Source of the DNA: Candidatus Methylomirabilis limnetica
Lineage (GTDB): Bacteria; Methylomirabilota; Methylomirabilia; Methylomirabilales; Methylomirabilaceae
Length of the DNA stretch: 32,000 nt
Assembly: GCF_003044035.1 (NCBI RefSeq)
Contig: NZ_NVQC01000022.1
Location: forward strand, 240,001-272,000
Direction: 5' to 3'
Under the pieces are notes generated by a model. The model saw nothing but the letters and a program-made list of their open reading frames with translations. It did no database searches and had not been told where the DNA came from. Numbering within the stretch: the first letter of the stretch is position 1; every line of letters begins with the position of its first letter. Shown here one piece after another: positions 27,055 through 27,993 of the stretch. Position numbers and translations under genes: made by a program.

Positions 27055-27993
27055 TCACCCCCGGCGCGTCACAACGAACTCAGCGATCGCAGCAAGCGCC
27101 GCCCCGCGGTCGCCAAAGATGCTCACGGCCTGCTTCGCCTCCGACGCTAAGCGATTGGCCCATCGCCGCGACTCCTCGATCCCGAGCAAGGCCGGAAAGG
27201 TGGCCTTCTTCTTGCGGAGGTCGCTCCCTGCCTGCTTCCCCAGGGCCTCCAGGCTCCCCTCCAGATCCAGGATGTCGTCCACGATCTGGAAGGCGAGTCC
27301 GATCCGCTCGCCATAGATGGTAAGGGCCTCCATCTGCTCCGATGCGGCCGAGGCTAGAAGGCCGCCCACACGCAGGCATACCCTGATCAGGGCGCCGGTC
27401 TTATGCGCATGCAGATACTGTAGCGTTGGTAGATCAACCTCCCGATCCTCATGCAGGATATCTACGACCTGGCCACCGACCATTCCCTTGCTGCCTGCGG
27501 CCTGGGAGATCTCCTGTATCACCATGAGGCGGGCCTCCGACCCACGCACCCCCTCCAAATCCCCCCACCCCCCCTTTCGCAAAGGGGGGTACGAGGGGAT
27601 TTCCGCCGACAGCAGGATAAATGCCTGCGTCAGCAACGCATCACCCGCCAGGATGGCCATCGCCTCGCCGTAGACCTTGTGGCAGGTCAGGCGCCCACGG
27701 CGGAACTCATCGTCGTCCATAGCCGGCAGGTCGTCGTGAATCAGGGAATAGGTATGAATCATCTCGATGGCGGCCGCAGCTCCCAACGCCTGTTCCGCCT
27801 GTCCTCCTGCGGCCTCTGCCGCCGCCAGGATCAGGATCGGTCGCAGGCGCTTGCCCCCTGCAAAGACACTGTAACGGACCGCCTCGTGGATCTCCTTCGG
27901 GTTGTCGCCTGTACCGGGAAGATACCTGTCCAGCGCCTCGTCAACCAGCAACCGCCGCGCCTCCAGGTACTGCCCCAACTCCTCCGGTGTCAA
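27055..27993 (-). CDS. ispA: Polyprenyl (farnesyl/geranylgeranyl) diphosphate synthase carrying a palindromic-element insertion
   Basis: First DDxxD block (IHTYSLIHDDLPAMDDDEFRRG), second block (FQIVDDILD), and GKxxGxD. Conserved position after xseB. Confidence 0.9.
   Translation of the reverse strand: MTPEELGQYLEARRLLVDEALDRYLPGTGDNPKEIHEAVRYSVFAGGKRLRPILILAAAEAAGGQAEQALGAAAAIEMIHTYSLIHDDLPAMDDDEFRRGRLTCHKVYGEAMAILAGDALLTQAFILLSAEIPSYPPLRKGGWGDLEGVRGSEARLMVIQEISQAAGSKGMVGGQVVDILHEDREVDLPTLQYLHAHKTGALIRVCLRVGGLLASAASEQMEALTIYGERIGLAFQIVDDILDLEGSLEALGKQAGSDLRKKKATFPALLGIEESRRWANRLASEAKQAVSIFGDRGAALAAIAEFVVTRRG
27557..27602. repeat. G/C-rich palindromic element (PPLxKGG type) in frame inside ispA
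   Basis: AAATCCCC-ccac-CCCCCCTTT-cgc-AAAGGGGGG-tacg-(A)GGGGATTT. Translated as EIPSYPPLRKGGWGDL. Confidence 0.85.

Follow-up and report, generated by a model that had tools for sequence, protein, structure and literature searches.

The gene at 27055–27993 (minus strand) of the window, meaning the whole analysed stretch of 32,000 nucleotides, encodes an ispA-type prenyl diphosphate synthase and contains a 46-bp nested palindrome at 27557–27602. This raises the question of whether a DNA element was inserted into the reading frame of this gene, to which family such an element belongs, and how the encoded protein could accommodate it. An earlier note on the same DNA had proposed an in-frame insertion into a loop of the protein, by an element analogous to the Rickettsia palindromic elements (RPEs).

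The palindrome and its host protein

The palindrome was characterised by pattern, arm and fold searches. Its arms of 21 nt (27557–27577 and 27582–27602) are 76% complementary and include an inner stem, CCCCCCTTT/AAAGGGGGG (27569–27577/27581–27589), in which nine of nine positions are paired around a 3-nt loop. On the minus strand, which is the coding strand, the element reads AAATCCCCtcgta-CCCCCCTTT-gcg-AAAGGGGGG-g-tGGGGGGATTT, corresponding to the block order outer arm, C-block, loop, G-block, and mirror G-block. It is better described as a hairpin of three blocks, or a triplex-type motif, than as a two-tier palindrome. The core pattern CCCCCTTTNNNAAAGGGGG matches the window twice (7347 and 27570), compared with 0.01 matches expected from shuffles. 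An Rfam search of the window matched no family. The RNA fold predicted for the sense strand is a nested hairpin of −43.1 kcal/mol for 91 nt (z = −1.9), while the antisense strand gives a weaker fold of −30.3 kcal/mol; the fold z-scores are modest, ranging from −1.7 to −1.9.

The host gene is intact, encodes 312 amino acids, and adjoins xseB-like and xseA-like ORFs. It matches PF00348 (polyprenyl synthetase) with E = 7.7e-59, and both Asp-rich motifs, D87-D88...D93-D95 and D239-D240, are present and invariant. The AlphaFold2 model, based on a diverse alignment of 126 sequences, reached a pLDDT of 92.9 and a pTM of 0.92; it was used instead of a model from close relatives alone, which was unusable (pLDDT 52.6). 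Comparison with CrtE, FPPS and GGPPS structures gave TM-scores of 0.89–0.96 (the higher of two normalisations). With this fold and the two Asp-rich motifs, the protein is assigned to the trans-prenyl diphosphate synthases of the IspA/CrtE type (PF00348).

The palindrome lies in this gene with the arms and the inner stem given above, and is read as the peptide EIPSYPPLRKGGWGDL between AILAGDALLTQAF and EISQAAGSKGMVGGQ, exactly as the earlier note had stated. The full inserted segment is somewhat longer. Delimited with the help of an orthologous protein, P0007 (see below), and of flanking motifs, it comprises about 66 nt at 27538–27603 (minus strand) and codes for E131–S152 (EIPSYPPLRKGGWGDLEGVRGS). 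The segment includes the flank GGAGGGGGTGCGTGGG, the reverse complement of a CGCACCC-type motif that borders many copies of the repeat. Because ispA is single-copy and intact, the element is presumably translated as extra amino acids.

In the model, residues 130–150 form a coil with a pLDDT of 49–60 between the helices 110–129 and 151–166. Mapping onto the predicted structure thus places the insert in a disordered loop between two helices, which follows the fifth long helix when counted by helix order. According to the model topology, the first Asp-rich motif (D87–D95) ends the preceding antiparallel helix. Therefore, the insert would be located at the end of the helix bundle opposite the catalytic site, in a disordered loop far from the catalytic Asp motifs. 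The top PDB match, 7MY6 (E = 3.8e-84), has a 15-residue gap facing the insert, and the solved structures of IspA homologues likewise show a gap at this site. The interval F125–G170 comprises 44 residues, compared with a mode of 31 in the 126 homologues, in agreement with the description of a variable loop that is clearly longer in this protein.

The T-type repeat family

The ispA palindrome has relatives throughout the genome (2.55 Mb in 40 contigs, 58.4% GC), and the dispersed family is referred to here by our own label, T-type. The core C5+TTT N2-6 AAA G5+ occurs 121 times, and the reversed block order does not occur at all. The T-type layout consists of the C-block CCCCCCTTT, a 3-nt loop, the G-block AAAGGGGGG, a short spacer, and the mirror G-block GGGGGGATTT, the last of which is often repeated on the other side too; the 33-mer of the motif is CCCCCCTTTGCGAAAGGGGGGGTGGGGGGATTT. 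A third block beside the hairpin accompanies 114 of the 121 cores; it reads GGGGG[AT]TTT when it lies 3' of the hairpin, and as the complement of this when it lies 5'. It is found on both sides in 28 cores, which is the nested-palindrome form seen in ispA. The loop triplets vary freely and the stems are constant. Many copies are bordered by CGCACC[CT]-like heptamers, and larger composite repeats in the genome also contain the T-type hairpin.

Three further sites in the window had been suggested to carry related elements. The copy at 7331–7380 (CCCCCCTTTGATAAAGGGGGG plus outer arms, without assigned strand) was recovered by the core pattern and by spacer comparison; it is intergenic and has the same architecture as the ispA palindrome, as claimed. 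The regions 9000–9090 and 18905–18945 do contain G/C-run palindromes, but these represent sister subfamilies of the CCCTCCCCC...GGGGGAGGG type rather than diverged T-type copies, and the first of them lies in frame within a gene. This element (CCCTCCCCCttactaaGGGGGAGG..., 9040–9085, minus strand) is read as …PPPPSSPLVRGRVGEE… in the hypervariable linker of a 399-aa protein encoded by ORF 8780–9979. The other one is intergenic (18905–18945, without assigned strand) and reads CCCCCTCC-ga-GGGGGAGGG-tga-GGGAGGGGG, its G-blocks forming a perfect mirror pair.

For comparisons with related genomes, this genome is designated G000. The spacer that holds the copy at 7331–7380 is empty in G031, G006, G001 and G007, where a stop/start overlap, TAAATG, is found. 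In the same spacer, eight species have other heptamer palindromes, and only G000 has a T-type element. These spacer states point to T-type activity after the split from the closest relatives. Core counts in the 31 related genomes are patchy and range from 0 (13 genomes, six of them of the same genus) to 106 (this genome), and the reversed-pattern control gave 0 in all 31.

With a slightly looser pattern, 129 cores were found and placed against a gene call from crude codon usage (2284 genes, 81% of the genome). Intergenic cores predominate (103), two lie across a gene end, and 24 are located inside ORFs, where about 105 would be expected under random placement (p = 1e-53). Eleven of the 129 cores (~9%) are deeply internal to called ORFs, with 40 codons or more on each side. 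Seven recognised genes hold ten of these cores in frame, and the remaining one falls in an ORF on contig C13 that is unconfirmed. Specifically, single T-type copies are present in IspA, in an AsmA-like protein and in a FolC-like Mur ligase (between the P-loop and the FFEV motif), and two copies each in PyrK, Mfd and a CopA-type ATPase, in the last case in the YHS-HMA linker. The window ORF 8780–9979 contains the sister-subfamily copy. Of the nine T-type copies located internally in recognised genes, eight encode PP[LF]xKGG, in line with the earlier idea that P-P-L/F-x-K-G-G-like peptides arise from either orientation; the typical T-type peptide is (K/N)(S/P)PxPP(L/F)xKGGxGG(F/I). Several further copies provide the final 10–25 codons and the stop codon of ORFs.

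The orthologue check of in-frame copies covered ispA, both Mfd sites, and ORF 8780–9979. At Mfd site 2, six species have the copy (KSPHPPLTKGGHGG) and six lack it; the copy at Mfd site 1 is present in four species. Against the orthologues of the genus, both Mfd copies and the linker copy of ORF 8780–9979 are lineage-specific insertions. Older T-type copies in Mfd have decayed.

The family is not confined to the Methylomirabilis lineage and spans phyla. The exact motif CCCCCCTTTNNNAAAGGGGGG N1-5 GGGGGATTT was found in at least 120 contigs of a one-genome-per-species collection, including Desulfobacterota, Nitrospirota, Beta- and Gammaproteobacteria, Chloroflexota, Acidobacteriota, Deinococcota and Nitrospinota, as well as in 91 IMG/VR viral contigs. 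Outside the lineage, five motif-carrying ORFs have Pfam domains flanking or surrounding an in-frame copy, namely RecJ on a Nitrospirota contig (copy inside the DHH domain), a radical-SAM/DUF2344 protein, RlpA, a PLP-dependent enzyme, and a GH3 hydrolase.

Insertion into ispA and later history of the loop

Orthologues of ispA were found by tblastn in 28 of the 31 related genomes, all with open frames. Most of them are about 894 nt long; the gene measures 936 nt in G000 and G008 and differs again in a few genomes. The insert is absent from about 9–10 of the 17 same-genus genomes with a match and from all orthologues outside the genus. An intact element occupies one shared ispA site in G000, G031 and G008, and G007 has a copy without its 3' part; the insert is thus common to four Methylomirabilis species, with one of the copies truncated. 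The unpublished genome G026 enters the tallies as a single row, with 0 cores and neither the insert nor DUF559, and none of the conclusions depends on it.

Among the 120 closest database orthologues of IspA, a length of 299 aa prevails. The metagenomic orthologue P0007 (321 aa) is more informative about the original event. In an alignment of 58 orthologues it reads LLSA ELASVDSDS KIPLYPPLPKGGWGDLEGVRGP EVRL, i.e. it combines the native loop ELASVDSDS (compare EPVSVDIDPE in the 299-aa forms) with the 22 extra amino acids KIPLYPPLPKGGWGDLEGVRGP. P0002 and P0003 (327 aa) resemble P0007. As P0007 retains the native loop along with the 22 residues, the original event added about 66 nt, and the 312-aa forms, including that of this genome, later lost most of the native loop. 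In this genome, the insertion is therefore not the clean one that had been expected from an alignment of orthologues. A target-site duplication was not identifiable at the ispA, Mfd or intergenic sites, nor could an exact filled/empty junction be read in DNA for ispA, where the intermediates are known as proteins only.

The peptide motif PP[LF]x[KR]G occurs in none of the 113 diverse homologues aligned (42–55% identical), and among the 126 sequences it is limited to the query and four close Methylomirabilis relatives. Given this distribution and the gap in the solved structures, no counterexample from an unrelated taxon was found. The alignments thus support a lineage-specific in-frame insertion at ispA, and agree with the earlier view that the segment was inserted instead of being ancestral protein sequence.

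The same loop is a hot spot that has also received other sequences. G010 and P0012 contain a different C/G-run palindrome coding for 38 aa, and the G006-type and G001/G004-type orthologues have other inserts. In a single-gene ispA tree, G008 groups with (G000, G006) and G007 with G001. Taken with the distribution of the insert, this tree requires a single old insertion that later decayed or was replaced, or else recombination. The right flank of G007, CATGGCCCGGAAGCC, can be aligned with that of G000, CGTGGGTCGGAGGCC, and the left junction of the insert is identical in both; this match favours common descent.

Comparison of the three intact copies in ispA shows variation at 1 of 28 positions in the blocks and at 14 of 38 in loops, spacers and flank (Fisher p = 0.002). 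The gene diverges between G000 and G008 by 15% overall and by 30% at third codon positions, and the loop triplet of the element is different in every genome (GCG, GGT, AGC, ACC). At the nucleotide level the blocks are thus preserved, whether through structure, through conversion from other copies or by chance. Their conservation could reflect gene conversion or selection on the peptide instead of selection on the structure.

Two alternatives to a simple inherited insertion have to be weighed against these observations. The hairpin might be kept in ispA for a function, for instance by modulating translation, transcript stability or operon recombination through its structure in mRNA or DNA. Such a role would fit the conservation of the three blocks in three species while loops and spacers change, as well as the sense-strand fold, which is stronger than its antisense counterpart. 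It is nevertheless considered improbable, as the element is absent from most ispA orthologues, truncated in G007 and replaced in G006, G001, G004 and G010, the same element is found at more than 100 unrelated places of the genome, and the fold z-scores are modest. That the segment is an ordinary fast-evolving protein loop whose palindromy is coincidental has a negligible probability. Loop length does vary among prenyl synthases, but the fully paired inner stem and the outer arms fit a family of 121 copies, and the segment is absent from the 299-aa orthologues and all distant homologues; the family census and the alignments refute this reading. The sequence comparisons instead indicate vertical inheritance of the ispA insert, as one copy of a widespread hairpin repeat of the triplex type.

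Spread of the repeat and comparison with known classes

The ispA palindrome is very probably a T-type copy of which about 66 nt were gained in frame in a Methylomirabilis ancestor, which is translated, and whose host loop was later eroded, with spread by a DUF559 cassette as the best guess. According to this proposal, the segment would have entered the inter-helix loop of IspA in the ancestor of several Methylomirabilis species. The insert is probably tolerated because the C-runs and G-runs leave all frames free of stop codons and because the loop is disordered and distal, lying at the end of the bundle distant from the catalytic Asp motifs; the runs would encode a flexible, Pro/Gly-rich peptide. 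Afterwards, the native loop was partly deleted in this lineage; one relative has only a truncated element, and in others different repeats have taken its place. The cassette is envisaged as a DUF559 (Vsr-like) nuclease gene between two inverted motif copies, and the many solo copies as possible gene-less derivatives, by analogy with REP/RAYT.

The genome contains five matches to DUF559 (PF04480), each bracketed within about 5–50 nt by inverted three-block motifs. The DUF559 gene at C11:337186–337509 is bracketed by T-type motifs, with CCCCCTTTgaaAAAGGGGG-attga-GGGGGATTT upstream and AAATCCCCCC-tgg-CCCCCCTTTTcccAAAGGGGG downstream. Among the 31 related genomes, all 19 free-standing DUF559 genes are motif-bracketed, six of them by T-type. 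On a tree of DUF559, the five motif types are explained by four changes, the fewest possible, compared with 10.8 on average after shuffling (none of 200 shuffles was as low), and the T-type DUF559 of G000 groups with genes of other genera, not with same-genus copies. Core numbers are 17–106 in genomes with a T-type DUF559, compared with a median of 0 in the others (Mann-Whitney p = 2e-4; 6e-4 when G000 is left out; related genomes are not independent). Four genomes, each 67–81% complete, have 17–37 cores yet no T-type DUF559. An HMM search of 160 cross-phylum and viral motif loci revealed one adjacent DUF559 gene and hence no evidence of enrichment; at this Nitrospirota locus, L075, the DUF559 domain lies between two inverted motif copies (Pfam). 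The link is correlative, and the assignment of the nuclease as partner of the T-type repeat is tentative. The nuclease could also be a passenger that inserts into repeats.

Spread without any dedicated enzyme is a possibility, though a doubtful one. In this case, hairpin or triplex DNA would stall replication and be copied by template switching, repair synthesis or ectopic gene conversion, and DUF559 genes would merely land in the repeats. Triplex motifs have been tied to local genome instability, with no mobility gene near them in E. coli (PMC4666352), different repeat types occupy the same loops and spacers in different species, and all-against-all ORF clustering detected no recurrent or enriched transposase within 8 kb of 80 cross-phylum copies. 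This is opposed by the near-identical 33-nt motifs in many phyla and viral contigs, which can hardly arise afresh, and by the motif type, which tracks both DUF559 clades and genome-wide copy number. It is unlikely that a Y1 (RAYT/IS200-like) tyrosine transposase of this genome mobilises the elements as REP-type repeats. The genome has five matches to PF01797, whose best NCBIfam match is the REP-associated tyrosine transposase family (65–75 bits, below the cut-off of 80), and REPs are known inside ORFs (PMC3733652). Yet the T-type hairpin flanks none of the five Y1 genes: in front of those on C37 stands GGGGTCAG, in agreement with the TIRYT motif GGGGWSAS (PMC3733652), the Y1 gene on C1 has no hairpins nearby, and the T-type element itself is without a REP tag. 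Due to these differing flanks, RAYT/TIRYT genes were ruled out as T-type mobiliser. The reading in which DUF559 takes part can be extended, with low confidence, to the whole class of related repeats. The T-type hairpin, and by extension the BoxC/PIT/TMECO class, would then be the recognition end of a mobile DUF559 (Vsr-like) system that makes or moves gene-less copies across phyla, is possibly phage-borne, and survives in essential genes through open frames and a flexible Pro/Gly loop.

The locus provides a clear natural example of how a structured, selfish repeat can reside in an essential enzyme. Orthologues date the insertion, metagenomes still contain an intermediate, and later truncation and replacement are traceable. 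Furthermore, the peptide PP(L/F)xKGGxGG(F/I) offers a handy annotation flag for T-type insertions, and the bracketing of DUF559 by the same motif offers a candidate partner for a long-unexplained repeat class. A description of palindromic repeats in Methylomirabilis was not found in the literature searched.

RPEs are in-frame palindromic repeats (Ogata et al. 2000, summarised in PMC10969869). As far as that summary describes them, they share with the T-type family that a multi-copy palindrome occurs in frame in many unrelated housekeeping genes, is translated, resides in fold-compatible loops, and is inherited across species. RPEs measure about 100–150 bp and are given there as confined to Rickettsia, whereas the T-type core has about 46 bp (~66 bp inserted), consists of C/G runs, crosses phyla, shows no sequence similarity to RPEs, and has only ~9% of its copies well inside called ORFs. 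The host, Ca. Methylomirabilis, and the C/G-run motif place the element outside the RPEs in terms of homology. Its behaviour is of the RPE type, with ten in-frame copies in seven unrelated genes and absence from orthologues where these were compared. The proposal of an RPE-like but unrelated family, multi-copy and repeatedly in frame in unrelated housekeeping genes, therefore holds. With the T-type family, the range of translated palindromic insertions reaches beyond Rickettsia and REP-rich proteobacteria to NC10 methanotrophs.

Short palindromic repeats inside ORFs have already been described beyond Rickettsia. REPs within ORFs, giving "REP-decorated proteins", are known from Opitutus and several proteobacteria, and DNA repair genes are frequently the hosts (Di Nocera et al. 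2013, PMC3733652). These palindromes of 20–40 bp are mostly intergenic, with a minority read as 20–30 extra residues (PMC3733652), and DNA repair genes are struck in the T-type family too, namely Mfd in this genome and RecJ on the Nitrospirota contig. T-type elements differ from REPs in that no GTAG or CGTC tag is present in the 121 listed copies, which end in AAAT/ATTT beside the C/G runs. In addition, no RAYT gene is flanked by T-type repeats, as the flanks of the five Y1 genes are free of the hairpin, so the arrangement is not a REPtron. A likeness to REP/RAYT persists in the single-copy enzyme gene bracketed by inverted repeats that are otherwise scattered without a gene. The enzyme of a REPtron is an HUH tyrosine transposase, whereas here it is a DUF559 (Vsr-like PD-(D/E)XK) nuclease, as candidate partner only. 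Compared with MITEs, palindromic arms are present, but no duplication is identifiable and no IS has the same ends; these are shared by the DUF559 cassette.

By sequence layout, the closest published kind for the T-type family is that of the class II intrastrand triplex motifs BoxC/PIT/TMECO, which have a three-block layout (Holder et al. 2015, PMC4666352). In class II motifs, a pyrimidine stem is followed by its purine complement and then by a mirror purine stem; the stems measure 6–15 nt and the loops 1–6 nt, and the TMECO/BoxC/PIT consensus is CCCTCNCCC N3-6 GGGNGAGGG N3 GGGNGAGGG (PMC4666352). These motifs are patchy among relatives, linked to unstable loci, and never near transposases (PMC4666352). 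T-type elements match this layout with a 9-nt C-rich stem, a 3-nt loop, a 9-nt G-rich stem, a short loop, and a mirror G-rich stem, and share palindromic variants, patchy copy number, unstable loci, and the absence of a nearby transposase. On the ispA coding strand the three blocks appear as CCCCCCTTT-gcg-AAAGGGGGG-gt-GGGGGGATTT, the triplex being putative and the layout read from sequence. The blocks themselves, CCCCCCTTT/AAAGGGGGG/GGGGGGATTT, deviate from the TMECO blocks CCCTCNCCC/GGGNGAGGG/GGGNGAGGG, so T-type elements fall outside the TMECO consensus, to which sister subfamilies such as CCTCTCCC...GGGAGAGG (12 copies) come close. In E. coli, TMECO is always intergenic (PMC4666352), whereas T-type copies are found inside genes, where they appear to be translated. 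The ispA element and its relatives thus extend translated insertion to triplex-type C/G-run motifs, which had earlier been reported as strictly intergenic.

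Repeat occupancy at the ispA loop, a spacer and a linker

The IspA loop is occupied by a different palindrome in a relative. In the ispA orthologue of genome G010 (L012, C8:494841-495848), the same site is taken by a palindrome of the CCCCCTCCGAGGGGGGAGGG type, encoding 38 aa, and sequence resembling the native loop flanks it on either side. These flanks may represent a long target duplication. The hairpin-loop triplets of the ispA copies in G031 (GGT, locus L041) and G007 (ACC, locus L003) are mutual reverse complements, a pattern expected if the hairpin tip flips by inversion between the arms.

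The spacers orthologous to the intergenic spacer at window 7260-7440 (L163-L179) are empty in four species. In the remaining species, at least four distinct repeat types fill this spacer, namely the T-type hairpin (a three-block C/G-run family), CAGC-type heptamers, GGGTAT-type heptamers, and GAGGTGC heptamers. Another C/G-run palindrome of the window is also translated: at about 9040-9085, it lies within a conserved ORF of 399 aa (8780-9979, minus strand), in a linker that is hypervariable. The genus orthologues carry other repeats or no repeat at this spot.

Nuclease and transposase genes associated with repeats

In the genome under study, G000, inverted three-block C/G-run motifs bracket every gene for a DUF559 (Vsr-like) nuclease (C11:337111-337580, C15:13680-13991, C11:329558-329866, C14:20608-20922, and C40:106214-106324). 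Four motif types each have solo copies in the genome as well (121, 27, 12, and 3), and 14 copies belong to a fifth solo type.

The region C37:89000-99000 contains four Y1 transposase genes of the TIRYT-like type, and GGGGTCAG precedes each of them. One of these genes is broken by a composite double-hairpin repeat (C37:94780-94911), and a paralogue at C37:91270-91300 retains the uninterrupted form of the split sequence.

Composite repeats and ORF ends

A conserved two-hairpin composite, CCCCTCTTTTCCAAAGAGGGG-gactacccgttt-CCCCCTTTgaaAAAGGGGG-attaa-GGGGGATTTT, is present at about 17 sites in G000 with near-identical flanks, for example at C3:42940-43010 and C11:85700-85770. Several repeat copies in this genome form the ends of ORFs, contributing the final 10-25 codons together with the stop (e.g., C8:11913, C33:117221, C33:123056, and C37:142515) and yielding C-terminal tails such as one ending in KSPHPPFTKGGHRGI before the stop. 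Therefore, the repeat may replace native C-termini.

In-frame motifs in other phyla

Outside the lineage, the T-type motif is also found in frame in RecJ, a radical-SAM/DUF2344 protein, RlpA, a PLP-dependent enzyme, and a GH3 hydrolase (loci L062, L045, L066, L119, and L078). The hosts are Nitrospirota, a betaproteobacterium, and an unclassified Pseudomonadota bacterium.
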